Source: Planctomycetaceae bacterium (lineage in GTDB: Bacteria; Planctomycetota; Planctomycetia; Pirellulales; Pirellulaceae). Taken from it: a stretch of 64,000 nt of DNA. Positions 15,901 through 62,229 of this stretch are shown here, piece after piece (position 1 is the first letter of the stretch; every line of letters begins with the position of its first letter). Both the position numbers and the translations under genes were made by a program. The notes under the pieces were generated by a model. The model made no database searches. It was not told the origin of the DNA and saw nothing but the letters and a program-made list of their open reading frames with translations. The stretch lies in the NCBI GenBank assembly GCA_002709045.1, contig PAPJ01000029.1:1057-65056 (forward strand), in the 5' to 3' direction.

Positions 15901-16392
15901 GTTGGAGATCGCTCAACTTGGTCCGGCGAAGGCCGAATTCGCCTGGTCGACGCCGATATTTATCAGTTACCACTGATGGTGGCCTTGTTAAGTAATTTGG
16001 GAGGAAATAAGGAGCGGGGAGCGTTTTCCTCGAGTGAAGTTGATTTCAGGATTAAGTCGGAACGGTTTATAATGGATCGCATTGCTCTGGAGGGTGATGC
16101 GGTGAGTCTCTATGGCGATGGCTGGATGTCTTTTGATAAAGAAATCAATATGGATTTCTACTCCATAGTGGGACGCCAGCGTATTGCGATTCCACTGATT
16201 AATCAGGTGGTTGCAGAGGCAAGTAAGGGACTGCTCAGAATTGATGTGGCCGGTTCACTGGACAAGCCTCAGGTCAACGGCACAGCTTTCCCTGAACTCG
16301 ACGGTACTATGGAGCGTATTCTGCATGACTTGAATACGCGTATTGCCCGACCGCTACCCAACGGCCAGCAACCGCTCATACAACTAAGGTAA
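12931..16392 (+). CDS. large membrane-anchored AsmA/TamB-like protein (putative envelope lipid-transfer or assembly factor)
   Basis: About 1153 aa. AGGAGG lies 6 nt upstream of ATG 12931, and an in-frame GTG lies at 12928. The gene overlaps the stop of the upstream GT39 gene. It has a single N-terminal TM helix and a long beta-rich body. The C-terminal block (…IALEGDAVSLYGDGWMSFDKEINMDFY…RIDVAGSLDKPQV) resembles AsmA-like C-termini. Confidence 0.55.
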   Translation: MDKPKRTPVNLTPKGGGFLHRWIRKFAVLVSLLAALLVVGHPWIGSRVDEEIHAQLLAAVKKAMPTAIVNVDSVVRRGNSGIVVTGLEVLLPSGPEAIAPAMQDNRKADGAARSFTRLPVIELDRLELIGRTDYGTLLTDKPVFSEVKLTGGKLRVVRASDGNLNLLRLLEGFGITEFTPKEIPTVRLSAMEVLLADAQQLGSQELSLMLTDGVIVQKPREQVFQNDDVAVRALNLLEVRLQFETELASGLQIEGAISLDNHPSLLNARVDGLVLDERLLEYLPVDVLDQLPAGMGFRGEAQFAMQLRTQIDLDESGRSNWSYDWVAAGVLSNGFYSDRRLPTPITDISGTVTWQGDEIRCERLNGRLANSPLTGSIRIQRLSSEPAVKATLRAENLQVDETLAQGLTGNGKLESVSRIFEMYSPRGTTGLHLTYDSAGLHPQTDIVLDVHDMDITYWKFPYPFHKVSGRILVSNKDVELQQVEAYTHGQRFEIQGNLKDAIDFPKGWIQVTADGAVPLDTELIQALDSKTRRTIDVLRPTGLVWLKRLRNEYSGDKYNPQREIDIEVKSGTVSYAQFPYPIHRVEGELHLRSGVWRFEDFSGYKGNSYIQLHGSLTPLADGDSKLNLELTGTDVDLDEELRTAFSVKNRNVTELWDQLQPQGALDHLTMKIEKYKSREKPSLYIRGKKWVPDESFATSRVQINPAWFPYAVDELTGEFVIHDGHVQLLDVRGKHDETEFVFDAVSHFNPDGGWDLAIEHLSIDRLAFDKDLLSALPESLSKGLKSLDLVGQLQIAGGMKFVKPIGGQLQSNWDVRVGAAGAAFTCGPRFNGVYGSVLLNGMSDRQGFRSKAWLDIDSMMWGDEQLTKLSGPVWVDSKQLLVGRWASIAQSRYEAADQQQDLQVVRQPRQDAQSILARTAGGLLGVDLQLQFVNKLRIESGVDRVVSRSADRFLLQASLSGADLGYLMRQHDVKEKAGGRINGAARLRGEVGDRSTWSGEGRIRLVDADIYQLPLMVALLSNLGGNKERGAFSSSEVDFRIKSERFIMDRIALEGDAVSLYGDGWMSFDKEINMDFYSIVGRQRIAIPLINQVVAEASKGLLRIDVAGSLDKPQVNGTAFPELDGTMERILHDLNTRIARPLPNGQQPLIQLR

Positions 16393-27317: not shown

Positions 27318-28739
27318 CTAAGTTCCAAACTGGGCTTCACAACGCCTGAGAGCATCTGTCACGCGACATTGGCCATGAGGGATAGTTACCAATGATTCGG
27401 TTTCAATCCAGTCTGTGACGCGTTGCTGAGCCGATATGACGGTATTGTGAGCTCGTTTACCAAAGTAGTCACCGATTTCAGAATAAGCAGCACGCGTGTA
27501 CTTGCGAGCGAGCCACATCGCCAGCATTCGAGGCTGACTGATACTTTTAGCTTTGGCAGTAGATTTTAATTGCTTGCGATCTACCCCAAATACTTCGCAG
27601 ACAGCCTTTTCAATATCGGAAATGCGAATATTGCGTTGTGGACGATTAAACAGGTCAGCTAATTGTCGGTCGGCATCTTCGTAAGATAATAATTCGCCGG
27701 TGAGTTGCTGTAATACACTAACGCGGTTGATTGCCCCCTGAATATGGCGAGCATCAGGATAGACGCGTTCGACAAGCATATTGATAACGCCTGAATCGAC
27801 TGTGATTCCTAAATGCTGACAGTATTGGTGGGCTATTTCCAGCCGCATCCCAAAGTCCGGAGCTTCTACTCCACAGACTAGTCCACTAGCCATCCGGGCA
27901 ACCAGATCAGAGCCAAGTCCATGGATCTCGGTGGGAGAAATTTTGGCCGAAAATATAAGCTGTTTACCACTGCGAAGCAGAGTATCGACAGTATAGTGAA
28001 ACTCAATCATCGTCGCCTGCTTGCCAACGAAAAATTCGATGTCGTCGATGATCAGAACGTCTACGTCGCGATGTTTGCGGCGGAAATTGGGGAGTCCGTT
28101 GCCTTGTAGTGATTCCAGAAAGTGAGTGGTGAATTGTTCTGCCGTTAGGTATACAGCCCGGCCCGCTTTTACCCGGCTACGGAATTTATTCCAGATGGCC
28201 TGCAGCAGATGTGACTTACCGCTGCCTGATGGACCATGCACGAATAGCGGCGAGATTGTTCCGGGGCGATCCAACATTGATTTAGCTGCACTAACAGCGA
28301 TGTGGTTGGATTGACCTATAACCAGATTAAGCAGCCCTGCAGTTGGTCGATGCGTAGCAATAGATTGTGTGGCCGGGGCAAGTGAAATTTTCTCAGCCTG
28401 AGGTAGTGTTGCTTGTCCTGTAGAATCGCGATGTTGCTGTACGGCGGGCTGTTCGCTGGCAACTTGGAATGAGAGCTCGAGATGGCTGTGGGACAGATAT
28501 GAAAGGATGTCGCGCAGTTTTGGCTGATAAATGCGCTTTAATCGTTCAGCGCTAAAGCTGTTGGGAGCGTAGAGATAGAGCGTCGAGCCTGTCAGGTTCC
28601 AGGTTACAGATCGATCGAACCAGACATCGAATTTGTCCGGTCCAATTTCATTGACCAGTCGATTCCTGATGGCCGAGACAATTGTCATTTCATCCTTGGT
28701 CACGTTTTTATATTCCTTTAAGCGTTTTTCAGCTTCCAA
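27318..28739 (-). CDS. dnaA: chromosomal replication initiator protein DnaA
   Basis: 473 aa. It has an N-terminal DnaA_N-like block, AAA+ Walker A (GPSGSGKSHLL) and Walker B (LIIDDIEFF). The C-terminal DNA-binding domain reads ISQPRMLAMWLARKYT…SEIGDYFGKRAHNTVISA. Confidence 0.9.
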   Translation of the reverse strand: MEAEKRLKEYKNVTKDEMTIVSAIRNRLVNEIGPDKFDVWFDRSVTWNLTGSTLYLYAPNSFSAERLKRIYQPKLRDILSYLSHSHLELSFQVASEQPAVQQHRDSTGQATLPQAEKISLAPATQSIATHRPTAGLLNLVIGQSNHIAVSAAKSMLDRPGTISPLFVHGPSGSGKSHLLQAIWNKFRSRVKAGRAVYLTAEQFTTHFLESLQGNGLPNFRRKHRDVDVLIIDDIEFFVGKQATMIEFHYTVDTLLRSGKQLIFSAKISPTEIHGLGSDLVARMASGLVCGVEAPDFGMRLEIAHQYCQHLGITVDSGVINMLVERVYPDARHIQGAINRVSVLQQLTGELLSYEDADRQLADLFNRPQRNIRISDIEKAVCEVFGVDRKQLKSTAKAKSISQPRMLAMWLARKYTRAAYSEIGDYFGKRAHNTVISAQQRVTDWIETESLVTIPHGQCRVTDALRRCEAQFGT

Positions 28740-32445: not shown

Positions 32446-33378
32446 GTGCCCAGCAAGTTTCGAGAACCATTCGCAACACTATATAAACAGGCGGCTAAGT
32501 TGCGTCAGGCCTCTGCTGCCGATGCGCTGTTGTTGTTACTTGATACAACAGCAGACTGGGCAGCATTGCGAAAGGCGGGACGGCATAATCTGATTCTCTG
32601 CGTCGCTCAGCAGGCGGAGTACCTAGAAGGTGCAGAGGAGCACGGTCTTACTCCTGTGCTTCTTGAAGCAGATGATATTCCAGTACAGGAATTAATGGAA
32701 ACAGCTCTGCTCGAGTGTGTTGCTAACGACATACTGGAAGCAGGTTCTCAGGTGGTTGCCGTATATTCGGGTTTCCATAGTGATATGCATGATAGTATCT
32801 CACTCATTCGGCTGGATGAGCATTTAGGAAGATTGACTGCTAAGGATCTCAGAAAATTAGAAACACGGGTGCCTCTTGAAACCTTAAAGTCGGTTGTGGA
32901 TCTGGCTGTGGAAATCGGTTTTGAAGGTCGTGAGGGAAAACCTGTAGGTACTTTGTTTGTCGTAGGCGATGCCCGCAATGTGCTGGAGCATTGTCACCCG
33001 GCAGGTTTTGATCCGGTACGTGGATATAAGAAGAACGATCGAAACATTAAAGATGCGCGGATACGTGATGCGGTCAAGGAAATTGCTCAGCTTGATGGAG
33101 CGATGGTGATTGGGAGTGATGGCGCTATAGAACGCTCTTGTCAAATCATTCAGGTCAACGCGACAAGTTTAACCTTGTCAAAAGGATTAGGGGCAAGACA
33201 CTGGGCTGCAGCTTCGATCTCCAAAGTCACTAAAGCGATTTCCGTCGTTGTGAGCGAATCCAACGGAACCGTTCGTTTGTTTCAGGATGGTGAAGTGGTA
33301 CTGCGTATCGAACCGATGCGGCGTGCTATGAAATGGCGTGAATTTGATTTTGACCCACCGATTTCCTCTTCAGAATAA
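32446..33378 (+). CDS. DAC (DisA_N) domain protein, putative diadenylate cyclase with uncharacterised N-terminal domain
   Basis: 310 aa with a GTG start. The C-terminal half reads GTLFVVGD…LDGAMVIGSDGAI…LGARHWAAASIS…AISVVVSESNGTVRLFQDG. This matches the DGA and (G/T)RHR…VVSE…G blocks of DisA_N, with RHW in place of RHR. Confidence 0.7.
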   Translation: MPSKFREPFATLYKQAAKLRQASAADALLLLLDTTADWAALRKAGRHNLILCVAQQAEYLEGAEEHGLTPVLLEADDIPVQELMETALLECVANDILEAGSQVVAVYSGFHSDMHDSISLIRLDEHLGRLTAKDLRKLETRVPLETLKSVVDLAVEIGFEGREGKPVGTLFVVGDARNVLEHCHPAGFDPVRGYKKNDRNIKDARIRDAVKEIAQLDGAMVIGSDGAIERSCQIIQVNATSLTLSKGLGARHWAAASISKVTKAISVVVSESNGTVRLFQDGEVVLRIEPMRRAMKWREFDFDPPISSSE

Positions 33379-38126: not shown

Positions 38127-39563
38127 TTAATTGCGATTGAGGCAATCGAAAGTTTGAACTATTTGTTCATCCTGAGCGGCAAAAACGCTTCGCAGATCCA
38201 GACGAAATTCATCCTGTTTAATTCTTCCCAGAATAGCGGTGTCCGCGGTCCTAAGGGCCTCTGATAATCCGTCATGTGATAGTTTCTTGTGCTTAACTGA
38301 AATCGTCCATGTTTTGATTTCCTGCGTTGGTACACTCCCTCCACCAAAATAGGTCACATCTTCGGCCGTTGCTGCATGAAAATCCGATAACTGATTTAAT
38401 CTGGCGGCCAAAACTTCTGCTCGCTTATGTAGATTGTCTAAAGGTTCACTAAGTAACTGGAGAACCGGAATTCGTTCGGTTGGATTTGACGAAAGGTACA
38501 GATCCAGAGTGGCGTTGAGTGCTGCCAGAATGGTTTTGTCCAGTCGTAGAGCGCGCATCATGGGGTGTCTGCTGATTTTGCTGACAGCCTCACGGTTACC
38601 AATAATGATTCCACATTGTGGACCACCCAATAGCTTGTCCCCGCTAAACAATACGATGTCTGCCCCTGCTTTCAGGCTTTGAGCAGCCAAAGGTTCGTCT
38701 TTGATTCCAAGTTTCGCAAAGTCGTAAAGGGCTCCTGAACCAATATCATCGACGACGCTGACATGATCGTGTCTGGATGCTACTTTGACCAGTTCTTCAA
38801 TCGGCGTTGCCTGGCTGAAACCGGTAATCTGGTAGTTGCTGCAGTGAACTTTCATTAGGACGGCAGTTTGCTCACTGATGGCATTTTCATAGTCGGCGGC
38901 ACGTGTTTTGTTTGTTGTTCCAACTTCACAAAGCGTGGCCTGACTCATTTTCATAACATCAGGCATGCGAAAACTACCGCCGATTTCCACCAGTTCCCCA
39001 CGTGAAACGACAGTTTCTTTACCACCCGAGAGAGCTGCCAGGGTAAGCATCGTAGCACCAGCATTGTTGTTAACTACTGCGGCGGCGGAGCCTCCAAAGA
39101 GTGTCAGTAGTTTTTGCTCAACGGCTTCAACCCGTTCGGATCTTTTGCCTGTATTCAAATTGATTTCCAGACTGGAATACCCCTGACCTGTTTCAACCAT
39201 TGCCTGGACCGCTTCGGTGGCCAGCGGTGCCCGCCCAAGCCCCGTGTGCAGAATAATGCCGGTGGCATTAATGCAGTACTGCAACGATGTACCGTAAACT
39301 AATTTAACCTTTTCAGCGATTATCTGAATCAGGTGATTCTGATTAACATCATGCGTGTTGTGAGCAAGGATGTTGCTACGCAACTGTTCAATTGCGGCGC
39401 GAGTTGCCTCGACAACGACACGATTATGTGTCGCCGCGAGCAGATCTTTAATTGCCGGAGTATCCAGCAATTCGCTGACAGACGGGATGTTTCGTAATAG
39501 ATCATTCATGACTTTTGGGGATTTAGATTCCTTTATTTTCAATCCCATGGACGGATAGGACAA
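38127..39563 (-). CDS. selA: L-seryl-tRNA(Sec) selenium transferase
   Basis: 478 aa. Motifs are GSFRMPDVM, EVGTTNKTR and the PLP-lysine block FSGDKLLGGPQCGIIIG, which compares closely with E. coli SelA. Confidence 0.92.
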   Translation of the reverse strand: MSYPSMGLKIKESKSPKVMNDLLRNIPSVSELLDTPAIKDLLAATHNRVVVEATRAAIEQLRSNILAHNTHDVNQNHLIQIIAEKVKLVYGTSLQYCINATGIILHTGLGRAPLATEAVQAMVETGQGYSSLEINLNTGKRSERVEAVEQKLLTLFGGSAAAVVNNNAGATMLTLAALSGGKETVVSRGELVEIGGSFRMPDVMKMSQATLCEVGTTNKTRAADYENAISEQTAVLMKVHCSNYQITGFSQATPIEELVKVASRHDHVSVVDDIGSGALYDFAKLGIKDEPLAAQSLKAGADIVLFSGDKLLGGPQCGIIIGNREAVSKISRHPMMRALRLDKTILAALNATLDLYLSSNPTERIPVLQLLSEPLDNLHKRAEVLAARLNQLSDFHAATAEDVTYFGGGSVPTQEIKTWTISVKHKKLSHDGLSEALRTADTAILGRIKQDEFRLDLRSVFAAQDEQIVQTFDCLNRN

Positions 39564-39569
39564 GGGGAT

Positions 39570-41537
39570 TCATGAGCCAAGGAATCGGAGATCGCCTTTT
39601 CGGACGGTAAAACCGTTACGATCCAAATATTCGCACAACGGCACAGCGTATTTCCTGGTGGTGCCTAAGACATCACGTATTTCGGCCATTGTTTTACCAT
39701 TTCCGTCAGCCATCAATGAACTAATTTTTTTCTGCACATCGTCGACTGTTTGCATAGATAAATAGAGTTGGTCAGAGATTTTCCTGATCGTGCCGCCTGA
39801 CTCTGCAATCTTCAGCAATTGCACGACGGCATCGGCCTGTTTATCTGCTTGATGCTGAAGCTCTTTGACGAAGGGGACCTCTAGCCCGTTCTGCTTCAGT
39901 ATTCTCTGCAGTTGTTCGAGGAGTTTGGCTTCATTCTTGGTTAATTTAGGGCCTCGTTCTTTTAACCCTAGACGTCCCATCGAGACCTGAATTATCCCCT
40001 CTTTTTGTAATAGAGAAAAGACTCTGTTTAGTATCGCGTCAACACCTAGAAACCGCAGGCGTTCGCGTACCGGAGCGATATCGAAATTGACATTTAACGG
40101 ATTTTCGTCATGCAGCCTGTTTAGAATTCGTGTGACATGCGTACCGGCGGCGGCTAGTGTCCGGGCATGGATCAATTGCGAAACGGAATTACTGAGTTCG
40201 ACCTCTAGTATATTCTCTTGCTTGATGAGCTCTTGAATGTAGCTGTCAGGATCGTCAATACCTGTCATGCGTGTCAAATCTGTATGAGAAGGATTTTTAA
40301 AACCACGTACTCCGATGGCCGATTGGATTCTTGTCCGATCGTCATTCCCATTGATTAGTCCCCGTACAAATTCCAGTTGCAGGCTATCCTGAAAACCGAT
40401 TTTATGAGCACAAGGATCCAGAATTCTTCCGCCCGCAATTGTGATAGCCGGAGATTCCATGCGAAGTACAAACGGTTGATTCCAGCAACAGACGACGGGG
40501 GAATCGGTGCTAAGTTGGGCAATCCCCTGCTCACCCGGAAAAAGTTCATCCTGTTCAAGTAGCTTGAGTGATGCAACGTGGTTAGCTGTGCCAAGATGCA
40601 ATCTGACAGACATATGGTTTGTTAGTGGAAAACGTGAGTTGGGAGCTACGGTAATGTTGACCGTCAGCATTTTGCTGGGCACCAGAAATCCGGCAGTTGC
40701 CAGTTCCATCCCTTTTCGGGTTTGATCGGGATGAATGCCAGCCAGATTAATTGCAGCCCGCTCACCTCGCATCACTGTATTCACTGACCGATCGTGATTT
40801 TGCAGGCTTCTGACGCGTACCTCGTGTTTGCCTGGCTCAAGCATAACGTGTTGATCAATACTTAGCTGGCCACTTGTCACACTGCCCGTGATAACAGTTC
40901 CGTGGCCATCTACCGAAAAACAACGATCGATGGCCAGTCTGAACGGGGCATCCTGGAGGTCAGGCAATACATGACGAATCGACTCACCCTGTCGGCAAAT
41001 AGCCTCTTTCAGCTCTTCAATCCCCTGCCCGGTTTCAGAACTGGTATGGATGCATGGAGCATTTTCAAAGAATGTACCGACACAGACTTCTCGGATCTCT
41101 GCTTCCACGAGTTCGGTGAGTTCCGAATCGACTAAATCACATTTAGTGATCGCAATAATACCTGCCTGAACATCCAGATATCTCAGGATATCCAGGTGTT
41201 CTCGGGTTTGAGGCTTTACCGAGTCATCAGCAGCAACGACTAGCATGACAAGATCCATGCCGGTTGCACCTGAGAGCATGTTACGTACAAATCGTTCATG
41301 ACCTGGAACGTCGACAATCCCCAGTTTAAAGGGAGGGAGAATGAGCTGGGCGAAACCGGGCTCAATGGTAATACCTCGTTTCTTTTCCTCCGGAAGTCGA
41401 TCGGTATTAATTCCTGTCAGTCTTCGTATCAGGGCAGTTTTCCCATGGTCGATATGACCGGCTGTACCAAGGATGAGAGGGGTTAGCTGAGATGTGTTGC
41501 TACCGGTGGAATCGTTGTCATTGGAGCCGCTGTTCAT
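39570..41537 (-). CDS. selB: selenocysteine-specific translation elongation factor
   Basis: 655 aa. The GTPase has G1 (GTAGHIDHGKTAL), G3 (DVPGHERF) and G4 (TKCD). Beta-barrel domains follow, then a long C-terminal winged-helix region typical of SelB. It sits 6 nt upstream of selA. Confidence 0.92.
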   Translation of the reverse strand: MNSGSNDNDSTGSNTSQLTPLILGTAGHIDHGKTALIRRLTGINTDRLPEEKKRGITIEPGFAQLILPPFKLGIVDVPGHERFVRNMLSGATGMDLVMLVVAADDSVKPQTREHLDILRYLDVQAGIIAITKCDLVDSELTELVEAEIREVCVGTFFENAPCIHTSSETGQGIEELKEAICRQGESIRHVLPDLQDAPFRLAIDRCFSVDGHGTVITGSVTSGQLSIDQHVMLEPGKHEVRVRSLQNHDRSVNTVMRGERAAINLAGIHPDQTRKGMELATAGFLVPSKMLTVNITVAPNSRFPLTNHMSVRLHLGTANHVASLKLLEQDELFPGEQGIAQLSTDSPVVCCWNQPFVLRMESPAITIAGGRILDPCAHKIGFQDSLQLEFVRGLINGNDDRTRIQSAIGVRGFKNPSHTDLTRMTGIDDPDSYIQELIKQENILEVELSNSVSQLIHARTLAAAGTHVTRILNRLHDENPLNVNFDIAPVRERLRFLGVDAILNRVFSLLQKEGIIQVSMGRLGLKERGPKLTKNEAKLLEQLQRILKQNGLEVPFVKELQHQADKQADAVVQLLKIAESGGTIRKISDQLYLSMQTVDDVQKKISSLMADGNGKTMAEIRDVLGTTRKYAVPLCEYLDRNGFTVRKGDLRFLGS

Positions 41538-53994: not shown

Positions 53995-55434
53995 ATGAGT
54001 GACCATCTTTACAATAAGGATATTACCGTTACACGGCGAGGCATGCTGAAAGTCGGTGCCTTTACCTTAGGGGCGACCGCTTCTGCCTTTAGTCCGTGGG
54101 AGACACAGTTACAGGCGTTCGCAATGCAGCCTGCCCTGGGTAAGGGTAAAGCTGAAAGCGTGCTGGTTCTGTGGATGGCCGGAGGTGTCACTCAGTATGA
54201 ATCCTTCGATCCTAAGATGGATGCTCCCTTAGAGATTCGAGGGAAATTGCAGGATATCCAAACGAGTTTGCCCGGTGTGCGATTTGGCGACACGATGACC
54301 GAGCTGTCTAAGATTGCTCACAAGCTCTCAGTGATACGCAGTTTTTCCCATCATAGCAATGATCATTTGATCAGCCAGGTGATGACTTTAAGTGGTCGTG
54401 TGGTTGGACGGAATGAGTTATTTAGTGAGCCGAATATTGGTTCCATCGTTTCGCATCTGCAGGGATCCCGAAACGGGTTGCCCGGATATATTTGCCTGCC
54501 CGGAATCACTCGCCCCGGACCACCTCCGTACAACTTCTTTAAGAGTGGCTGGATGGGCACTCAGTATCTTCCTTATTGTATTGGTGGACTGCCGGAAGAA
54601 CCCGACTTCACCGTTGGTGATAAGCTGGATGACCCTCCGGCCGAAATGGAAGAAGATCTGATTCCGAAATCGTTAGCTTTGACTGAAGATGTACCGTTGG
54701 CCAGACTAACTCGGAGAGCCTCGCTTCGCCAACAGTTTGATCAGGCCTTGAAACGCCTCGACGGGGACCAGCAGTTACTTGCTGCTGAAACGAAGTACAA
54801 GGGAGCCCTGCGGATGTTGTCGACCAGTGCTCTGCGTGAGGCGTTTGATATCAATCAGGAAGAGAGCGTTGTGCGTGAAACGTACGGCAAGACCAAGTTG
54901 GGGGGACGCTGCTTAATGGCTCGTCGTCTTATTGAAGCTGGCGCACCGTTTATCGTGCTCGACTATGGCTATGATTCTGACTATGGAAATATCTGGGATA
55001 ATCATAATGCAGCGAGCCAGAACCATCCTCCGATTCAGGAAATGGTAAAGCGTGGTTATCATCTGGCGGGAATGGATAAAGCATTTGCGGCATTGATTAA
55101 TGATATGGAGCAACGTGGATTGCTTGAAAAAACATTAGTTGTCTTCCTGACCGAATTTGGTCGGACGCCCAAGATTAATGCAAATGGAGGACGTGACCAC
55201 TGGGGAGCAGCTGGTTCGTTGTTTGTAACCGGTGGTGGTGTGAAAACCGGTCAGGTGATCGGTTCAACGGATAAGACCGGTGCTGAAGTAACGACGCATC
55301 CCTATTCGCCATCGGATATCGCAGCCACGATGTTCGCTTCATTAGGTATCGATCATCACGCCTTTGTGAACGATTTTCAGGGCCGTCCGCGTCCTATTCT
55401 TGAGCAAGGCGAACCAGTCGCAGAACTATTCTAA
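53995..55434 (+). CDS. DUF1501 domain protein (sulfatase-fold, Tat-signal)
   Basis: 479 aa with a Tat-like RRGMLKVGAFTLGATASAF signal. The blocks EFGRTP…GGRDHWG are as remembered for planctomycete DUF1501. Confidence 0.8.
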   Translation: MSDHLYNKDITVTRRGMLKVGAFTLGATASAFSPWETQLQAFAMQPALGKGKAESVLVLWMAGGVTQYESFDPKMDAPLEIRGKLQDIQTSLPGVRFGDTMTELSKIAHKLSVIRSFSHHSNDHLISQVMTLSGRVVGRNELFSEPNIGSIVSHLQGSRNGLPGYICLPGITRPGPPPYNFFKSGWMGTQYLPYCIGGLPEEPDFTVGDKLDDPPAEMEEDLIPKSLALTEDVPLARLTRRASLRQQFDQALKRLDGDQQLLAAETKYKGALRMLSTSALREAFDINQEESVVRETYGKTKLGGRCLMARRLIEAGAPFIVLDYGYDSDYGNIWDNHNAASQNHPPIQEMVKRGYHLAGMDKAFAALINDMEQRGLLEKTLVVFLTEFGRTPKINANGGRDHWGAAGSLFVTGGGVKTGQVIGSTDKTGAEVTTHPYSPSDIAATMFASLGIDHHAFVNDFQGRPRPILEQGEPVAELF

Positions 55435-55449
55435 CAGTCAGCAAACGGC

Positions 55450-55848
55450 TTATTCTACATGGATAATACGAGTGTTTATCATTGAGGCCCGCAGTTCACG
55501 GACTTTTTCCTGAGTAACCTTGCTGCCAGTCAGGCTAAGTACGATCAGATGGTGCATCGTGCCAAGTGTCTCGAGAGCTTTATCGGTGACGGCTGTTGCT
55601 GACAAATCGAGCGTTTCCAGAGAAGTTAACGTGCTGAGAACTTCCAAAGCCTGATCGGTGATTGCCGTACCCTGTAGATTGAGCTCCACCAGTTTGGCTT
55701 GCCCCCGCAGATTTTGCAACCATTGATCATTGATGATCCTTCCGGACGCTCCCAGATCTATCGTGTGCAATAGGCCACTCTTAAAACGACGAGTTTGTCC
55801 GCCTATGGATTCGATTTGTTTGCTGGTGATCAAATTTGAGTCGCTCAT
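55450..55848 (-). CDS. small leucine-rich repeat protein
   Basis: 132 aa with three to four LxxLxLxxTxVTDxxL repeats (LVELNLQGTAITDQALEVL, LETLDLSATAVTDKALETL, LIVLSLTGSKVT). There is no signal peptide. Confidence 0.7.
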   Translation of the reverse strand: MSDSNLITSKQIESIGGQTRRFKSGLLHTIDLGASGRIINDQWLQNLRGQAKLVELNLQGTAITDQALEVLSTLTSLETLDLSATAVTDKALETLGTMHHLIVLSLTGSKVTQEKVRELRASMINTRIIHVE

Positions 55849-56347
55849 ACTTTCCTAAACTAGCCTGCATAAGATTAATCGGCAACGGCTGCTTGGATTT
55901 TGGTAGTTGTTAAGATGTAACGCCTGAACACATTTTACATCGTGTACAACTTCTAGCGGGCACTGTAGTAAACATTGTTTCTTACAGGTATCCTTGCCGA
56001 AAGAAAAGAAGCAGGCAGTAGTTCTCTGGATGTAAACAGCATTGGAATGTGTTTTTGCACTGTCGAGGGTGTCTTTTGTCTGCGGTGTTTTACCAGGGAT
56101 TGGTTGAGAAACATTTCAATTGTCGTATTTCGTGCAGGGACAGGCACGGATACATAGTGGGTTCTACTGGTTATAACGGTTACAATTTGTCAAAACATCG
56201 GAAAAGAGGAATGTTTGACAGGGCTGTTTGCCAGATTTAAGACCTCGTGTTAATCTGAAATCTCGGGAACTGATGGAGTAGTTAGTAGTTTCTGGAATGG
56301 AATTCTAAGAACCGAGACAGACAAATATTGGTGTTGGAGTTGATGCG

Positions 56348-59300
56348 GTGAATTTAGATCGCTTATTTGCCCCGTACAAGCCCATCGAAACCCATCTGGT
56401 CGATTCCCTGGAGTATTGGGGAAAAGAACGTCCGGATCAGATAGCATATACGTTTCTGGTTGATGGTGAAGAAGATGAGTTGCAGATCACTTATGCAGAA
56501 TTGAGAGATTCGGCTCGAGCTATTGCTGCGCAATTGCAGGAATCGGGCTCGGTCAAAGGTGAACGGGTATTACTTCTTTATCATCCCGGAATGGAATTCA
56601 TCAAAGGATTTCTGGGCTGTTTGTTTGCCGGAGCTATCGCTGTACCGGCCTATCCTCCGCGACGAAATCGCAAGATGAATCGTATCGATTCGATCTCTGA
56701 CGATGCAAAACCAAAGTTTGTTTTTGCGACTCGTGATGTGATCGATCGTGGTGAGCATATACTGGAAGATAGTCCGCGATTACAGTCGGCAAAATGGATT
56801 GCGACTGAAGAAGTTCCGGTCGAAAAGAGTACCGATTGGAAGAATCCGGATATCGAAAAAGATGATTTAGCATTTCTCCAATACACATCCGGTTCAACCG
56901 GAACTCCCAAAGGCGTAATGATCTCGCATGGTAACATGCTCGCTAATCTACAGATGATTACTTATGCTTTTGATCTGAGTTGGAAGTCCCGTGGTTTGAG
57001 CTGGTTGCCGGCTTACCATGATATGGGACTCATCGGAGGCCTTTTGGCTCCGCTTTATACCAGTTGTTTCTGCGTCTTTATGTCCCCCATGGCATTCTTA
57101 CAGAAACCGATTCGCTGGCTAAAGGCGATTTCCAGATATAAGATCACTATTTCAGGTGGTCCAAACTTTGCCTATGACCTTTGTTCTCAGCAAATCACTG
57201 AAGAACAGATGGAGGGTTTGAATCTTAGTCGTTGGCGGTTGGCATATAACGGCGCTGAACCAATTCGTTCTTCAACGCTCAATGACTTCTCTAGAAAGTT
57301 TGAAGAAGTTGGTTTTAATTCACAGGTCTTTTATCCTTGTTATGGCATGGCCGAAGCCACGTTGATCGTGACTGGTAAAGTCTCGACTGAAAAACCAACT
57401 CTAAAGTCATTTGATAACGATTCGCTGCATGAACATCATGTGGTGCCGGTCAGCCCGGACACTCGTGGTGCCCGAACCTTAGTTGGCTGTGGATGTGTAT
57501 TTCCCAACGAAGATGTTGCCATTGTTGATTCACAAACCTATAAACGGCTGCCGTCAGGTGAAGTGGGTGAGATTTGGGTGAACAGTCCAAGTGTTGGCCG
57601 GGGCTATTGGGATAAGCCGGCATTATCACAGCAGACGTTCGAAGCTAAATTGGCAGATTCGCAAACCGGTCCTTATCTGAGAACCGGGGATCTGGGCTTT
57701 GTTCAGGGTGACGATCTTTTTGTCACGGGTCGTTTAAAAGATCTGATCATTATTCGCGGTGTAAATCGTTATCCGCAGGATATCGAACTGACGGTGGAAC
57801 GTGCTAGTAACCGGTTGCAAAACGGTGCCGTTGGCTGCTTTGCTGTGGATATAGAAGGTCGGGAACGACTTATTGTCGTGGCGGAAGTTGAACGTAAACG
57901 ACGAGAAGACTGGAGTGATGTGATTCAGGCAATTCGGCATGATGTGACAGCTGAACATGATGTTCCGCCAGATGGAATTGTACTTGTACGATTTGGTTCG
58001 ATTCCTAAGACTTCAAGCGGAAAGATTCAGCGACACGCATGTCGAAACAGTTTCCTCGATGGCTCGCTAAAAACAATCGCTTCCTGGTTGGCATGGGAAG
58101 ATACCGTTGCTCAAGAGGTGGTAATAACGGCAACGGCCGCTGATAAGAATTTAGCGGTTGGAGATCTGCCAACCGGTCTTCTTGAGTTGGTCATGGAAAA
58201 AGTTCGTGACGTTGCACGAGAACGTGCGGGAAGCATCAATGCGGAAACAAATATCGTGACTGACCTTGGACTGGACTCACTCGAACGGCTTCAAATTGCT
58301 AATTCGATTGAAGAAGTCTTTGGTCAACGTTTTCCTGAGGATGTGCTGCAGGAAATTGAAACCATTTCACAAGTTGCTTCGGCCGTTAAGGATCATTTCA
58401 AAGATATCGATGCTCAGTTAGGTCAGGTGGCGAAGAAGCCTAAGAGCATACGCAGTGCCCAGATCGAAATCCCTGAATCAGATTATAACTTTGCATTGAT
58501 GCCGGAATATGTACGCCTGCAAAAGACGAAGAAGCTTCTGGCTTCAACAGGTTTACCTAATCCGTATTTTAGTGTTCATGAAGAATTAACCAATGATACG
58601 ACAACGATTAACGGTCGTGAACTTTTAAGTTGGTCTAGCTATAACTATCTGGGAATGTCCGGTGACCCTGCCGTCGTGAAGGCTTCTCAGGAAGCGGTTG
58701 AAAAATATGGGACCAGTGTTTCGGCCAGTCGCTTGGTTTCTGGTGAAAAGCCGATCCATCGTGAACTGGAACAGGGGATCGCGGACTTTATCGGTGTCGA
58801 GGACGCGATTACCTATGTTGGCGGTCACTCGACCAATGAATCGACGATCGGTCACCTTTTTGGCTCTGGTGATCTGATTGTTCATGACAGTTTGTCACAT
58901 AACAGTATTATTCAGGGATCAATCCTATCCGGTGCTCGTCGTCGGCCGTTTAAGCACAATGACTGGCGTGAACTGGATGAGATTTTAAGCGAAGTCCGCC
59001 ACGAGTACCGACGCGTGTTGGTCGTGGTGGAAGGTGTCTATAGTATGGACGGTGACTTCCCTGACCTGCCTAAGTTTATTGAGATTAAGAAGCGACATCA
59101 TTGCTTTCTGATGGTTGACGAAGCTCACTCCATCGGTACGATGGGCGAACATGGTCGCGGTATTAGCGAACACTTCGGGGTAGATGCTCGTGAAGTTGAC
59201 ATCTGGATGGGTACGTTAAGCAAGACCTTTGGAAGCTGTGGTGGTTACATTGCAGGAACCAAGGAACTTGTAGAATATCTCAAATACACTTCACCCGGTT

Positions 59301-59761
59301 TTGTGTACAGCGTTGGGCTTTCTCCAGCTAATGCCGCAGCCGCTTTAGCGGCATTGCGAGTGTTGGAAGATGAACCTGAACGTGTTGCCCGAAGTCAGCA
59401 CAATAGTCGATTCTTCCTGCAGGAAGCACGTAAACGTGGTCTCGATACCGGGTTAGGTAATAATACACCGGTGGTTCCTGTGATTATCGGTAACTCGCTG
59501 CATGCTTTGCAACTATCGCATCAGCTATTTGAACGTGGTATCAATGTACAGCCAATTCTTTATCCCGCTGTAGAAGAAGCAGCAGCACGATTGCGTTTCT
59601 TTATCTCGTCAACTCACACGGAAGAGCAGATTATTCAAACCTGTCAGGCTGTTGCCGAAGAAGTTGAAAAAATCGATCCGACCTATCTGAAGTTTGAAAA
59701 TGGCCCGACCAAGGAAGCCAATAGCGTTCAGAGAACCAAAATGTATGATTCGGAAGGTTAG
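56348..59761 (+). CDS. tri-domain fatty-acyl-AMP ligase / acyl carrier protein / alpha-oxoamine synthase (AONS/SPT/CqsA-like, PLP-dependent)
   Basis: 1137 aa; GTG start with GGAG 8 nt upstream. The adenylation domain has LQYTSGSTGTPKGVMISH, YLRTGDLGF and PKTSSGKIQR. The ACP motif is LGLDSLERL (Ser644, nt 58277-58279). The AONS domain has SYNYLGM, HDSLSHNSIIQG, VDEAHSIGTMGEHGRG and GTLSKTFGSCGGY (Lys959, nt 59222-59224). Confidence 0.9.
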   Translation: MNLDRLFAPYKPIETHLVDSLEYWGKERPDQIAYTFLVDGEEDELQITYAELRDSARAIAAQLQESGSVKGERVLLLYHPGMEFIKGFLGCLFAGAIAVPAYPPRRNRKMNRIDSISDDAKPKFVFATRDVIDRGEHILEDSPRLQSAKWIATEEVPVEKSTDWKNPDIEKDDLAFLQYTSGSTGTPKGVMISHGNMLANLQMITYAFDLSWKSRGLSWLPAYHDMGLIGGLLAPLYTSCFCVFMSPMAFLQKPIRWLKAISRYKITISGGPNFAYDLCSQQITEEQMEGLNLSRWRLAYNGAEPIRSSTLNDFSRKFEEVGFNSQVFYPCYGMAEATLIVTGKVSTEKPTLKSFDNDSLHEHHVVPVSPDTRGARTLVGCGCVFPNEDVAIVDSQTYKRLPSGEVGEIWVNSPSVGRGYWDKPALSQQTFEAKLADSQTGPYLRTGDLGFVQGDDLFVTGRLKDLIIIRGVNRYPQDIELTVERASNRLQNGAVGCFAVDIEGRERLIVVAEVERKRREDWSDVIQAIRHDVTAEHDVPPDGIVLVRFGSIPKTSSGKIQRHACRNSFLDGSLKTIASWLAWEDTVAQEVVITATAADKNLAVGDLPTGLLELVMEKVRDVARERAGSINAETNIVTDLGLDSLERLQIANSIEEVFGQRFPEDVLQEIETISQVASAVKDHFKDIDAQLGQVAKKPKSIRSAQIEIPESDYNFALMPEYVRLQKTKKLLASTGLPNPYFSVHEELTNDTTTINGRELLSWSSYNYLGMSGDPAVVKASQEAVEKYGTSVSASRLVSGEKPIHRELEQGIADFIGVEDAITYVGGHSTNESTIGHLFGSGDLIVHDSLSHNSIIQGSILSGARRRPFKHNDWRELDEILSEVRHEYRRVLVVVEGVYSMDGDFPDLPKFIEIKKRHHCFLMVDEAHSIGTMGEHGRGISEHFGVDAREVDIWMGTLSKTFGSCGGYIAGTKELVEYLKYTSPGFVYSVGLSPANAAAALAALRVLEDEPERVARSQHNSRFFLQEARKRGLDTGLGNNTPVVPVIIGNSLHALQLSHQLFERGINVQPILYPAVEEAAARLRFFISSTHTEEQIIQTCQAVAEEVEKIDPTYLKFENGPTKEANSVQRTKMYDSEG

Positions 59762-59774
59762 AAGTTACGAAAAA

Positions 59775-59798
59775 AGGGCCGTCATTTCTGACGGCCCT
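59775..59798. terminator. bidirectional intrinsic terminator hairpin
   Basis: Arms agggccgtca (59775-59784) and tgacggccct (59789-59798) form a 10-bp GC-rich perfect stem with a 4-nt loop. An A-run precedes it. It lies between the convergent megasynthase (+) and beta-barrel (-) genes. Confidence 0.75.
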
Positions 59799-59819
59799 CT
59801 CGTTATTCCCAGCCGATTT

Positions 59820-60986
59820 TTATCGGTTCAGCGTGATTCCAAAGTTGAAACCATAGGTCAGGAATCTGTCTCCGTAGTTCTCACCTCGTCCAATACCTTT
59901 GCCATAGTTGATGACGTTAAACCCAAAGCGAGCTGTTAAATCGCGTGTAATTGTGTAGGCTGCTTCACCGCGATATTCACCGCCCCAGACAAACGAGTTA
60001 TCAGTATCCCAGGTAATAGTTTGCTCACGAGTTTGTGATTCGGGTTCCTCGCCGGTACCTACTTCTACCTGAGTTACTTCTCGCAACTGATCTTTACGAA
60101 TGCTTTGATTGTTATTCATCGCGAAAAAGCGAAGCTCATTAGATAGTAACCATCGACTCTGCTTACGATACCACCTCAGTCCCAACTGACCGCCAAACAT
60201 GTCATTATTGTGTATCCCCTGATTGAGGATATATTCTTCTATCTCAGCGTCATCCGGAGCCGGCGAATCGGGATTGTTCGGATTGGGAATCTGAGGCACT
60301 GGCAGACCGTCCTCATCATATCGATTGTACTCAGCACTTTCAAAGTAATCTCTAAAATTACTGTACCGGATACCCACGAGTGGCTCCCAAATTCGTCCCT
60401 TGTCATTTTCTTTAAGACGCCAGGTACGATTCAGTTCCCAACTGCTGTAAGTAACAGCGTTAATTGAGTCTCGTAGGATATAGTCACGCTGACCGGTGAT
60501 CGGATTATTATCATCCTGATTTGGCGTTGGTTGTTCGTCACCACCACCACCACCACCACCGTCACCGCCCTCTTCTTCGGCAACTCGGTTATTACGTTCT
60601 ACAATTAGCTCCTGATAGGTGTTAGGGCCGCCAAGAGTCGTGGTACTTAGATTCCATCCCAGATTGTCGGGGCGCATGAATCCTAAGCTGATACGCTTTC
60701 CGCTTCCCCTGTCAAACGATCCATAGGACTCTTCTTGACGAGGCCTGGCTGTCTTGGTGAACAGCTTATCCCAGGTAAAGAACCACCCGAAGTTTGGTGT
60801 AAAATCACCAAAGTGAGTATTATCTAACGGAGCGAAGAACTGATAATCCGGGTTGAACTCGTCAAAGTCAACAAATGGACCGGAATACTGGCGTTGGCCG
60901 TAATTCTGAGCTTCAACACTCGTTGCTACCAGTGTCATAATGGCTAGAACGCCGAGTAATGTTTGAATTCGGGGGAATCTCATCAC
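59820..60986 (-). CDS. putative outer-membrane beta-barrel protein with Gly-run loop
   Basis: 388 aa with signal peptide LLGVLAIMTLVATSVEAQ. It is rich in aromatic residues and Gly, with alternating-hydrophobicity strands toward the C-terminus (FGFNVINYG…LTYGFNFGITLNR). It is possibly of the planctomycete porin-like (BBP7/DUF1551) type, but this was not verified. Confidence 0.55.
   Translation of the reverse strand: MMRFPRIQTLLGVLAIMTLVATSVEAQNYGQRQYSGPFVDFDEFNPDYQFFAPLDNTHFGDFTPNFGWFFTWDKLFTKTARPRQEESYGSFDRGSGKRISLGFMRPDNLGWNLSTTTLGGPNTYQELIVERNNRVAEEEGGDGGGGGGGDEQPTPNQDDNNPITGQRDYILRDSINAVTYSSWELNRTWRLKENDKGRIWEPLVGIRYSNFRDYFESAEYNRYDEDGLPVPQIPNPNNPDSPAPDDAEIEEYILNQGIHNNDMFGGQLGLRWYRKQSRWLLSNELRFFAMNNNQSIRKDQLREVTQVEVGTGEEPESQTREQTITWDTDNSFVWGGEYRGEAAYTITRDLTARFGFNVINYGKGIGRGENYGDRFLTYGFNFGITLNR
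60540..60560 (-). repeat. (GGT)7 trinucleotide repeat encoding Gly7 inside the beta-barrel gene
   Basis: The plus strand has (acc)7 at 60540-60560. The minus-strand codons are GGC GGT GAC (GGT)7 GAC, giving GGDGGGGGGGD. Confidence 0.9.
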
Positions 60987-61020
60987 TTGATACCACTAAT
61001 CTGTGAATCTCGGTTTCCCA

Positions 61021-61036
61021 ATGCGTACGTACGCAT
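61021..61036. promoter_or_regulatory. perfect 16-nt palindrome ATGCGTACGTACGCAT upstream of the beta-barrel gene
   Basis: The sequence at 61021-61036 is self-complementary. It lies 35-50 nt upstream of ATG 60986, in the 325-nt divergent intergenic region. Confidence 0.35.
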
Positions 61037-61311
61037 CGGCAGAACCTGTTAGTTGTTAATGGTCGTATCGTCAGTGATGGTCGTAAGAGTTAAGTAACTC
61101 TGGTAATCTATGACGATTTTTCCAGATATTCACACGAAATATGGGAAACTGGAGTAGATACATAGAATAGGAACGACCATAGAGGCCGCCTGTCTCGAAT
61201 ATTCATTGAATACCGTTATAATGACAAGCCATGGCCTTTAACGATTGACTGCCCTGCTAATCGTCTGAAATGGCCTGTTCTATTAGCAATCTTGATTAAT
61301 ACCCCGAGTAA

Positions 61312-62229
61312 GTGATGTATAAGTCCTCGAAAATCACATTTTCAAAACCTTTGCTACTGATGGCACTCGTGTTGGCCGTCTGTTCAGCTAATTTTGCAGA
61401 TGAGACGGTTAAAAAGAAGCCGCCGGCGAAGACCCAGAATCGATCGTATGTGAGGATTGATCGAGATGATAATAAGCAAGCTTTGGCTTTGCAAACGTCC
61501 GTGGTAAAGATGCGTGGTACCAAGGGAACTCAGCGAAAAGTTCAGGTGGACTTAATTGGAGCGATTCATATCGGTGAAAAAGAATATTACGCTCAACTCA
61601 ATGAATTATTTGAAGACTACGATGTAGTCCTGTATGAGTTAGTTGCTCCGGAAGGAACGGTTATTGAAAAAGGCCACAAGCAAGGCATTAGTCTGGACGT
61701 TGTTTCCGGATCGCAGTCGGGCATGCAAAAAATCCTGGGACTGACCCACCAACTGGAACAGATCGACTACACCGTGGATAACTTTGTTCATGCCGACATG
61801 AGTCCGGGAGAATTCTCCAAGCAGATGAAAGAACGCGATGAGAGTTTTATGAAAATGTATTTTCGATCAATCGGTCAGGGTTTAGCAATGCAGGGAACAC
61901 CTGGACAGACCAGCGACTTCAGTCTGCTGGTTGCTCTTTTTTCCAAGGATCGTGAGCGAAAGATCAAGACAATAATGGCTCAGCAATTCGAGCAAATGGA
62001 TGGTTTGCCGGATGTGATGAGCGGGCCGGAGGGGTCGACTATTATTCACTTGCGAAACGACAAAGCTTTAGATGTACTCGAAACACAACTCAAAGATTCG
62101 TCCAAGAAGAAGATAGGTATCTTTTATGGTGCCGGTCATTTTGATGATATGGAAGAAAAGATGATGGAACGATTCAGATTCAAACGAACCGGAGAAGAAT
62201 GGCTAGATGCCTGGAATTTACGTGAGTAG
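61312..62229 (+). CDS. secreted hypothetical protein (possibly TraB/GumN-like)
   Basis: 305 aa with signal peptide LLLMALVLAVCSANFA. The block DLIGAIHIGEKEYY is reminiscent of the TraB/GumN family. The functional assignment is weak. Confidence 0.5.
   Translation: MMYKSSKITFSKPLLLMALVLAVCSANFADETVKKKPPAKTQNRSYVRIDRDDNKQALALQTSVVKMRGTKGTQRKVQVDLIGAIHIGEKEYYAQLNELFEDYDVVLYELVAPEGTVIEKGHKQGISLDVVSGSQSGMQKILGLTHQLEQIDYTVDNFVHADMSPGEFSKQMKERDESFMKMYFRSIGQGLAMQGTPGQTSDFSLLVALFSKDRERKIKTIMAQQFEQMDGLPDVMSGPEGSTIIHLRNDKALDVLETQLKDSSKKKIGIFYGAGHFDDMEEKMMERFRFKRTGEEWLDAWNLRE

Follow-up and report, generated by a model that had tools for sequence, protein, structure and literature searches.

What does a bacterium make with a single protein in which a fatty-acid-activating domain, a carrier domain and a chain-condensing domain are fused? 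This question is raised by a gene in a 64,000-nucleotide stretch of DNA from a Planctomycetaceae bacterium (contig PAPJ01000029.1); the window hereafter means this whole 64-kb stretch. The gene encodes a fatty acyl-AMP ligase (FAAL), an acyl carrier protein (ACP) domain and a pyridoxal 5′-phosphate (PLP)-dependent alpha-oxoamine synthase (AOS) in one polypeptide. Our comparisons of its domains with known families indicate that this single enzyme probably joins an amino acid to a free long-chain fatty acid, independently of CoA, and thereby forms a long-chain 2-amino-3-ketone. The gene and its parts are located as follows.

56348..59761, plus strand: FAAL-ACP-AOS tri-domain gene, 1137 amino acids, GTG start (from the listing of open reading frames (ORFs) and the translation)
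56336..56339, plus strand: GGAG, Shine-Dalgarno-like, 8 nt 5′ of the GTG (read directly from the sequence)
56393..58087, plus strand: FAAL domain, residues 16-580
58187..58384, plus strand: carrier (ACP / PP-binding) domain, residues 614-679
58619..59650, plus strand: PLP-dependent AOS domain, residues 758-1101

A preliminary description of this DNA had proposed one protein with these three domains. The ORF and four Pfam domains, all above gathering score, confirmed this architecture, and the motifs that it had singled out (TSGSTGTPKG, TGDLGF, SSGKIQR, LGLDSL with Ser644, and Lys959) all lie where it had placed them. By sequence comparison the tri-domain ORF is not a chance ORF, because a word-indexed search returned more than 8000 homologs and the top 120 of these are full length with the same domains. 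Apart from fragments of the P0009/P0010 type, the best 120 are approx. 1100 amino acids long, and they share at least 59% identity with the protein.

Sequence similarity assigns the activating domain to the FAAL type and not to the CoA-ligase type. Pfam detected AMP-binding at residues 22-421 (250 bits) and, at residues 465-578, AMP-dom_DIP2-like (PF23024), which is the FAAL-type C-terminal subdomain and not the generic AMP-binding_C; both were above gathering score. FAAL models occupied the top ranks in NCBIfam (PRK05850 with 447 bits, FadD32 with 440 and PRK12476 with 437), and altogether FAAL models scored 405-447 bits compared with 196-337 bits for CoA-ligase models. The motifs TSGSTGTPKG (180-189), YGMAE (332-336), TGDLGF (446-451) and SSGKIQR (556-562, including the A10 lysine Lys559) are present. 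In a set of 178 homologs with this architecture and a length of 1000-1250 amino acids, which underlies all conservation counts given here, each of the ANL core motifs is kept in at least 163 and the A10 lysine in all 178. The best PDB match was 7R7E-G (572 amino acids), which aligned with 598 bits over residues 16-580 with gaps of only 1-2 residues. The alignment is gap-poor also past the YGMAE motif (residues 340-385), in the region of the FAAL-specific insertion. Further matches were the Legionella FAAL 3KXW (475 bits) and the FadD32-type FAALs FadD32, FadD23 and FadD28 (347-368 bits). The PDB label of 7R7E-G reads 'Polyketide synthase' only; we take it to be the FAAL that loads the olefin synthase of Synechococcus PCC 7002 and accepts C18.

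FAALs put free fatty acids onto pathway-specific carrier proteins (PMC10114076). For the tri-domain protein, acyl transfer to a carrier and not to CoA is predicted, and the carrier domain present in cis fits this prediction. Pfam PP-binding (PF00550) covered residues 614-679 with 42.5 bits at a cut-off of 20.8. The phosphopantetheine-attachment residue Ser644 (58277-58279) is part of the LGLDSL motif (640-645) and is kept in 175 of the 178 homologs.

The C-terminal domain was recognized by Pfam Aminotran_1_2 (residues 758-1101; 168 bits, above gathering score) and carries the SSYNYLG motif at 763-769. In alignments with Arabidopsis LCB2a, Thermus ThAOS and the Sphingobacterium serine palmitoyltransferase (SmSPT), to which the domain is 33-37% identical, its key residues His851, Asp924, His927, Lys959 (59222-59224, in TLSKTF at 956-961) and Arg1083 coincide with catalytic ones. 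Together they make up the set expected for the AOS family (fold-type I PLP), i.e. a stacking His, an Asp-x-x-His pair, the Lys that binds PLP and a carboxylate-binding Arg towards the C-terminus. Each of the five residues is conserved in 165-176 of the homologs (Lys959 and His851 in 173 each, Asp924 in 176, His927 in 165). The orthologs have thus not lost the catalytic lysine, the catalytic histidine or the carrier serine, a loss that the preliminary description had considered as speaking against its reading.

To which AOS subfamily does the domain belong? Placement was based on cut-offs of curated hidden Markov models (HMMs), PDB scores and a rough neighbor-joining tree. The highest-scoring PDB entries were LCB2a (255 bits), ThAOS and SmSPT (240 bits each), human SPTLC2 (235 bits) and KBL (204-233 bits). 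Lower scores were obtained for Sphingomonas SPTs (196-216 bits), ALAS (191-196 bits), cysteate acyltransferases (approx. 176 bits), entries named BioF only (85-172 bits) and CqsA (85 bits). The NCBIfam models gave a similar result in that none reached its cut-off. The three Spt models SerpalmtaseCFB, BetaP and AlphaP scored 323, 283 and 225 bits (cut-offs 640, 500 and 670), two Kbl models 316 and 260 bits (cut-offs 460 and 493), the HemA model 257 bits (cut-off 338.6) and the CqsA model NF005526 163 bits (cut-off 428). The top-scoring AOS-type model was TIGR00858 for bioF with 358 bits, which is again below its cut-off of 426. According to these data, the AOS domain has an intact active site and lies outside every characterised subfamily (Spt, BioF, Kbl, HemA and CqsA), CqsA being the most remote.

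The first rank of TIGR00858 is one argument for an unusual BioF, in which the FAAL-ACP part would activate pimelate and the AOS would form 8-amino-7-oxononanoate (KAPA). In addition, homologs bear the JGI label '8-amino-7-oxononanoate synthase/acyl carrier protein', and natural BioW-BioF fusions exist, some members of which have a broad substrate scope (PMC9544090). These fusions resemble the tri-domain protein in that an acid-activating enzyme is joined to an AOS. BioW, however, gives the pimeloyl-CoA thioester and works without a carrier domain, whereas the tri-domain protein has a FAAL and an ACP, and its FAAL is of the long-chain type nearest to loading FAALs of polyketide synthases (PKSs). 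The PDB entries named BioF only scored well under SPT, KBL and the dual BioF/Kbl enzyme ThAOS. A clustering of the domain with BioF, which in the preliminary description would have pointed to ordinary biotin synthesis, was accordingly not found (E. coli BioF 172 bits compared with 240-255 bits for SPT and ThAOS). Furthermore, bioA, bioD and bioB were not seen beside the gene in the window or in related loci with scanned neighbors, and the ketoreductases to which relatives of the gene are coupled (see below) would destroy KAPA. Taken together, a role in biotin synthesis is highly improbable.

Hardly more can be said for an autoinducer synthase of the CqsA/LqsA type, which would make an alpha-amino- or alpha-hydroxy-ketone as quorum signal. 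The AOS superfamily is common to both, and a long-chain aminoketone is formally alike in product class to the aminoketones and hydroxyketones of CqsA and LqsA. These enzymes are, however, stand-alone, CoA-dependent and paired with a sensor kinase, and CqsA takes acyl-CoA and has neither FAAL nor ACP. CqsA structures scored far under SPT, KBL and ThAOS, the CqsA subfamily was the most distant of those compared, and none of the 47 large ORFs scanned in the window encodes a CqsS/LqsS-like kinase. We therefore consider this function very improbable. The preliminary description had left the choice between a sphingoid-base and a CAI-1-like product; the sphingoid-type product agrees with the present data, and the CAI-1-like product turned out to be the weakest candidate.

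The nearest relatives of the AOS domain point in another direction. With 52-62% identity, these are AOS genes of approx. 450 codons located directly 3′ of genes for KS-AT-DH-ER-KR-ACP synthases of approx. 2550 amino acids at approx. 40 loci. Similarly close are AOS domains at the C-terminus of multidomain proteins of 1400-2600 amino acids, the composition of which is known for the AOS part only. A rough neighbor-joining tree, calculated from 144 AOS domains with three references and no bootstrap, grouped the AOS domain of the window with those of planctomycete tri-domain proteins inside a large group including stand-alone and multidomain-terminal AOS domains. LCB2a, ThAOS and SmSPT were placed elsewhere, alongside more distant tri-domain proteins. 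Of the phylogeny that had been envisaged in the preliminary description, this tree covers the three references; it sets the domain apart from the solved SPTs and together with PKS-linked AOS domains. On sequence grounds, we assign the domain to the carrier-protein-fed (PKS-linked, WcbT-like) AOS clade. The rough tree serves for this assignment and for one further point only, namely that the FAAL-ACP-AOS fusion is found in more than one lineage of the AOS. The SSYNYLG motif and the serine preceding the conserved arginine (SASR) are closer to LCB2a and SmSPT than to ThAOS, and this likeness gives no more than a hint of a long acyl chain and perhaps serine as substrates. Homology shows the three domains in this order, catalytic residues that are intact, an activating domain of the FAAL type and an AOS with affinity to carrier-fed enzymes of its kind.

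The stand-alone AOS loci (L041-L082, e.g. L056:2299-11269 and L076:9830-17194) come from approx. 40 proteobacterial genomes including Desulfopila, Thiothrix, Accumulibacter, Methylococcaceae, Nitrosomonas and Marinobacterium. Their conserved neighbors are a formyltransferase-like gene, a short-chain dehydrogenase/reductase (SDR) gene, two Capsule_synth genes (KpsC/KpsS-type), a sulfatase-family gene and an ABC ATPase gene. From this gene content, PKS and AOS look like makers of an amino-lipid anchor for a capsule. Presumably they correspond to wcbR/wcbT in the capsule locus of Burkholderia pseudomallei, with wcbT as the assumed AOS partner. Given that these are its closest AOS relatives, the tri-domain protein might likewise provide a surface glycoconjugate with its lipid anchor or primer, and its acyl donor would be a carrier-bound long chain as well. 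In the WcbR/WcbT-like pairs, however, the chain is made de novo by the PKS, which is highly reducing, whereas the tri-domain protein would take a free fatty acid via its FAAL. Moreover, a Capsule_synth, glycosyltransferase or export gene was absent near the gene in all planctomycete loci examined, which makes such an anchor function improbable.

How would the three domains work together? We propose a soluble enzyme that acts as a minimal assembly line, i.e. a PKS-loading-like module capped by an off-loading AOS. A Kyte-Doolittle scan predicted no transmembrane segment in the tri-domain protein. In a first step, the FAAL would adenylate a free long-chain fatty acid with ATP. The acyl group would then be moved onto the phosphopantetheine arm at Ser644 of the protein's own ACP and not onto CoA. 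The AOS, using Lys959 for the Schiff base, would bind an alpha-amino acid and attack the acyl-S-ACP thioester in a Claisen-type reaction with loss of CO2. Finally, a long-chain 2-amino-3-ketone of the 3-ketosphinganine type would be released and holo-ACP regenerated. To our knowledge, all AOS enzymes act as homodimers and, by likeness to them, the AOS domain is probably homodimeric. Plausible amino acids are Ser, Ala or Gly. We infer the chain length, the amino acid, the dimerisation via the AOS and a later reduction of the product. The sequence of loading onto the in-cis ACP and decarboxylative condensation to a 2-amino-3-keto lipid had already been outlined in the preliminary description, and it fits the FAAL type, the conserved residues and the reductases found beside relatives of the gene.

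The proposed reaction resembles the entry into bacterial ceramide synthesis of the Caulobacter type, for which a four-gene operon ending in spt (PMC10411912) and the pathway genes (PMC11324152) have been described. The Caulobacter trio of acyl-ACP synthetase, ACP and Spt has the same three activities and uses them in the same order to reach a 3-keto long-chain base. In contrast to these separate proteins, the tri-domain enzyme unites all three activities in one polypeptide, and for activation it has a FAAL of the kind that loads PKSs. It also differs from the Caulobacter-type Spt in that its AOS fails the three Spt models and lies apart from the solved SPTs in the rough tree. Unlike in the Caulobacter system, bCerS and CerR are not adjacent to the gene in the window or among the conserved Pirellulaceae neighbors.

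A second group of related systems comprises RedL, RedN/PigH and SxtA, in which the AOS domains condense the chain with an amino acid and thereby release it. As in the tri-domain protein, a carrier in cis feeds the C-terminal AOS. In contrast to these proteins, the tri-domain protein contains neither a KS/AT extension module nor tailoring domains and is reduced to loading and off-loading, and its gene is a solitary core gene outside any cluster. RedL (A-ACP-KS-AT-ACP-AOS), RedN/PigH (ACP-ACP-AOS) and SxtA (MT-GNAT-ACP-AONS) have been catalogued beside an A-CP-PLP protein of Blastopirellula (PMC3870968).

As the gene of the window stands alone, we examined which organisms encode homologs and which genes accompany them. 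Named organisms among the best 120 homologs belong to the Pirellulaceae, Pirellulales, Planctomycetaceae and Planctomycetota and include Pirellula staleyi DSM 6068. An exhaustive HMMER search over 50%-identity representatives yielded dozens more clusters with a single full-length match each at 36-48% identity, the nameable members of which are from Photorhabdus and Anaerolineae. A scan of species genomes added tri-domain examples from Vicinamibacteraceae and Coxiellaceae. Judged from these homologs, the architecture is widespread in Planctomycetota and other phyla and is neither rare nor new. Proteins from marine metagenome-assembled genomes (MAGs) of Pirellulaceae, named 'uncultured Rhodopirellula sp.' or 'Pirellulaceae bacterium', are 91-94% identical to the tri-domain protein, and the DNA is contained in marine metagenomes.

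The recurrent partner of the tri-domain relatives is a ketoreductase, which is either adjacent or fused. A planctomycete MAG (L033) encodes a Zn-dependent alcohol dehydrogenase 4 bp 3′ of the tri-domain gene. PAP2_C and then an NAD-dependent SDR accompany the gene in a MAG of Coxiellaceae (L039), and the best models of this SDR are HpnA and the lipid 3-oxo reductase OleD. At another locus, an SDR gene overlaps the tri-domain homolog, accompanied by an MFS transporter and a second class I/II aminotransferase. The fusion protein P0143 has the order FAAL-AOS-NAD-dependent epimerase/SDR, with PP-binding not listed at the E-value used. A recurrent ketoreductase is expected if the AOS frees a 3-keto amine for reduction to an amino alcohol, as in sphingoid-base synthesis. 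By analogy to these relatives, the 3-keto group is most likely reduced next with NAD(P)H, which would give a sphingoid-type amino alcohol; the reductase for this step would be encoded elsewhere in the genome.

Other contexts and fusions vary this theme. A Vicinamibacteraceae MAG (L029) has a 2-oxoacid_dh-type acyltransferase upstream. In a metagenomic operon (L083:211-6553), genes for FadL (Toluene_X) and two patatin-like lipases precede the tri-domain homolog, and this order suggests that imported or lipase-released fatty acids might be handed to the FAAL. Two fusions (P0124 and P0148) have the composition FAAL-acyl-CoA-dehydrogenase-ACP-AOS and another one (P0139) FAAL-luciferase-like-ACP-AOS. 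In P0121, the tri-domain unit is followed by FAAL-ACP-class III aminotransferase, which by analogy would yield a BioF-then-BioA-like diamine logic on a long chain. A few loci on short contigs (three representatives) gave almost no information on neighbors. Upstream of the homolog in Pirellula staleyi (L001:7114-9435) lies a gene for a 772-amino-acid protein with at least two methyltransferase domains, for which no counterpart was found in the other loci or in the window.

The setting of the tri-domain gene itself is that of a core chromosome. The window contains dnaA, IMP dehydrogenase (guaB), GMP synthase (guaA), SelA/SelB, proC, efp, surE and ksgA, and in addition riboflavin synthase (ribE), enolase (eno), dxs and xseA. 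Among the 47 large ORFs scanned in the 64-kb window, no SDR/MDR ketoreductase, N-acyltransferase, sensor kinase or biotin gene was found. The statement of the preliminary description that a reductase, an N-acyltransferase and a CqsS-like sensor are not adjacent was thereby extended to these ORFs. In Pirellulaceae, the tri-domain gene (+) forms a synteny block with genes for a 388-amino-acid barrel protein (-), a 305-amino-acid secreted protein (+) and a xylose-isomerase-like TIM-barrel protein (+). Besides the window, 17 related loci contain the barrel gene, 15 the gene for the 305-amino-acid protein and 13 that for the TIM-barrel protein. Even where the tri-domain protein is only 53-60% identical the block persists, and the genes upstream vary.

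This setting bears on a further alternative, in which the same chemistry serves another end and yields a secondary metabolite or a small molecule that diffuses. Candidates are the aminoketone as such, an alkyl-pyrazine arising by spontaneous dimerization, or a further tailored compound; alpha-aminoketones are known to self-condense. Two loci resemble biosynthetic gene clusters. In Photorhabdus (L087:10001-19908, CP199718.1), the tri-domain homolog heads a cluster with a carbamoyltransferase, a P450 and an SDR, and in an 8.3-Mb genome a homolog lies beside PhyH, P450 and SDR genes. The lack of an adjacent reductase in the window fits such a product as well. On the other hand, the gene of the window is located in a core housekeeping region near dnaA, its synteny in Pirellulaceae is kept down to 53% identity, and no transporter, regulator or tailoring gene is linked to it. 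We therefore regard a secondary metabolite as rather unlikely. A role in the synthesis of a cell-envelope amino lipid is weakly favored over a strain-specific secondary metabolite because the gene is solitary, lies in a core chromosomal region and has 120 best homologs with at least 59% identity. In the Photorhabdus cluster, a PvcA-like/TauD pair of the isonitrile type follows.

Several points weigh against the conversion of fatty acid and amino acid to the precursor of an amino lipid as proposed here. The FAAL domain scored under all NCBIfam equivalog cut-offs and belongs to no named FAAL orthogroup. As the AOS domain scored under every NCBIfam cut-off as well, characterised specificities are not simply transferable to either domain, and the sequence does not reveal the amino-acid substrate. 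In the window and among the conserved Pirellulaceae neighbors, a reductase, an N-acyltransferase and a head-group transferase linked to the gene are all lacking, so that in this lineage the product could stay at the aminoketone stage or not be a membrane lipid at all. Homologs in several other phyla are found in secondary-metabolism-like clusters (P450, carbamoyltransferase, PhyH). Literature searches (FAAL with oxoamine, AONS or PLP; Spt fusions) returned no biochemical study of the FAAL-ACP-AOS family. Evidence for transcription exists but is weak: in one marine metatranscriptome, Logan contigs match 56330-56484 (the 5′ end of the gene), 57694-57855 (internal) and the 3′ part of the barrel gene, and these contigs are of low depth with DNA carry-over possible. 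A metatranscriptome contig (run X16) is without two bases at window position 56446, which would result in a frameshift at codon 33; the probable cause is a difference between strains or an error in assembling this low-depth contig.

Do the neighboring elements give a clue to the product? The following features adjoin the tri-domain gene or lie further away in the window.

59775..59798, no strand assigned: terminator-like perfect 10-bp G+C-rich hairpin AGGGCCGTCA-TTTC-TGACGGCCCT, between two convergent genes
59820..60986, minus strand: secreted 388-amino-acid beta-barrel protein (BBP7-like), convergent to the tri-domain gene (from signal peptide, homologs and AlphaFold2 (AF2) model)
61312-62229, plus strand: 305-amino-acid signal-peptide protein, next to the barrel gene
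27318-28739, minus strand: dnaA

The hairpin begins 14 nt past the stop codon of the tri-domain gene. An Rfam scan of 55400-61400, which includes the 500-bp spacer 5′ of the tri-domain gene, gave neither a riboswitch nor any other RNA above threshold; the long intergenic region 5′ of the gene thus offers no clue to a ligand. The convergent neighbor had been called a beta-barrel protein in the preliminary description, in agreement with its BBP7 homologs, the barrel in the AF2 model and outer-membrane matches in Foldseek. Among 19 homologs found, several contain PF07585 (BBP7), and the two named ones are planctomycetal. The AF2 model shows an all-beta barrel (pLDDT 72) with a Gly/Asp-rich, disordered low-confidence loop at residues 134-166 (EEEGGDGGGGGGGDEQ...). 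In Foldseek, the model matched outer-membrane barrels and came nearest to OpcA, OmpT/Pla and a porin of Legionella, with target-normalised TM values of 0.5-0.63. A FadL-type fatty-acid channel was considered and rejected, since FadL/TodX reached TM values of only 0.2-0.29 with this model. The barrel gene is the syntenic neighbor of the tri-domain gene down to 53% identity of the latter, and a functional link between the two has no basis beyond this synteny. For the 305-amino-acid protein, Pfam and NCBIfam gave no family match.

Some further observations concern the remainder of the window. Cumulative GC skew climbs throughout the window, which holds dnaA. Selenocysteine machinery is encoded on the minus strand at 38127-41537, where SelA (38127-39563) adjoins SelB (39570-41537). 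The sole match of a 1154-amino-acid ORF at 12928-16392 (+) was a weak C-terminal one to YhdP (AsmA-like). A DacZ_P-DAC diadenylate cyclase is encoded at 32446-33378 (+).

How does the tri-domain protein relate to what has been reported on planctomycetes? The architecture itself has been catalogued since 2013, when a table listed A-CP-PLP proteins of Blastopirellula marina (A3ZWL3) and Microscilla marina (A1ZVW4) with '?' as function; an 'AMP-binding enzyme' of Synechococcus PCC 7002 (B1XHP8) served there to model the Aminotran_1_2 domain (PMC3870968). The family is large and conserved, and in the literature searched it is uncharacterised. A survey of the Black Sea reported 138 Planctomycetota MAGs with Spt-like proteins and remarked that some of the Spt-like matches are 'longer proteins' (PMC11334938); its supplement contained nothing further on the tri-domain architecture.

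In a more speculative reading, the tri-domain protein would catalyze the committed step of an unrecognised pathway common to many Pirellulales, which would lead from free fatty acids, recycled or imported, to sphingoid-type long-chain bases without CoA or a canonical Spt. Sphingolipid-like envelope lipids would then have arisen independently in Planctomycetota, by a FAAL-driven route. This wider reading is possible but doubtful. Such a pathway could explain some of the Spt-like matches in longer proteins and the 138 Planctomycetota MAGs of the Black Sea survey.

The chemistry of the enzyme is predictable from known modules, so that the surprise to a specialist is moderate. If the proposed reaction is true, a self-contained FAAL-ACP-AOS protein would nevertheless be an attractive means of turning fatty acids into aminoketones and amino alcohols with no need of acyl-CoA. 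In that case, one gene would be enough to obtain the precursor of a long-chain base from a free fatty acid and an amino acid. It would also provide a marker gene distinct from canonical Spt; present Spt-based surveys sort by similarity only. Furthermore, the gene would offer a genetic handle on whether Planctomycetota make sphingoid-type or other amino lipids, a question raised by environmental lipidomics without enzymology (PMC11334938). The weight of the finding would rise if the product is a sphingoid-type planctomycete lipid.

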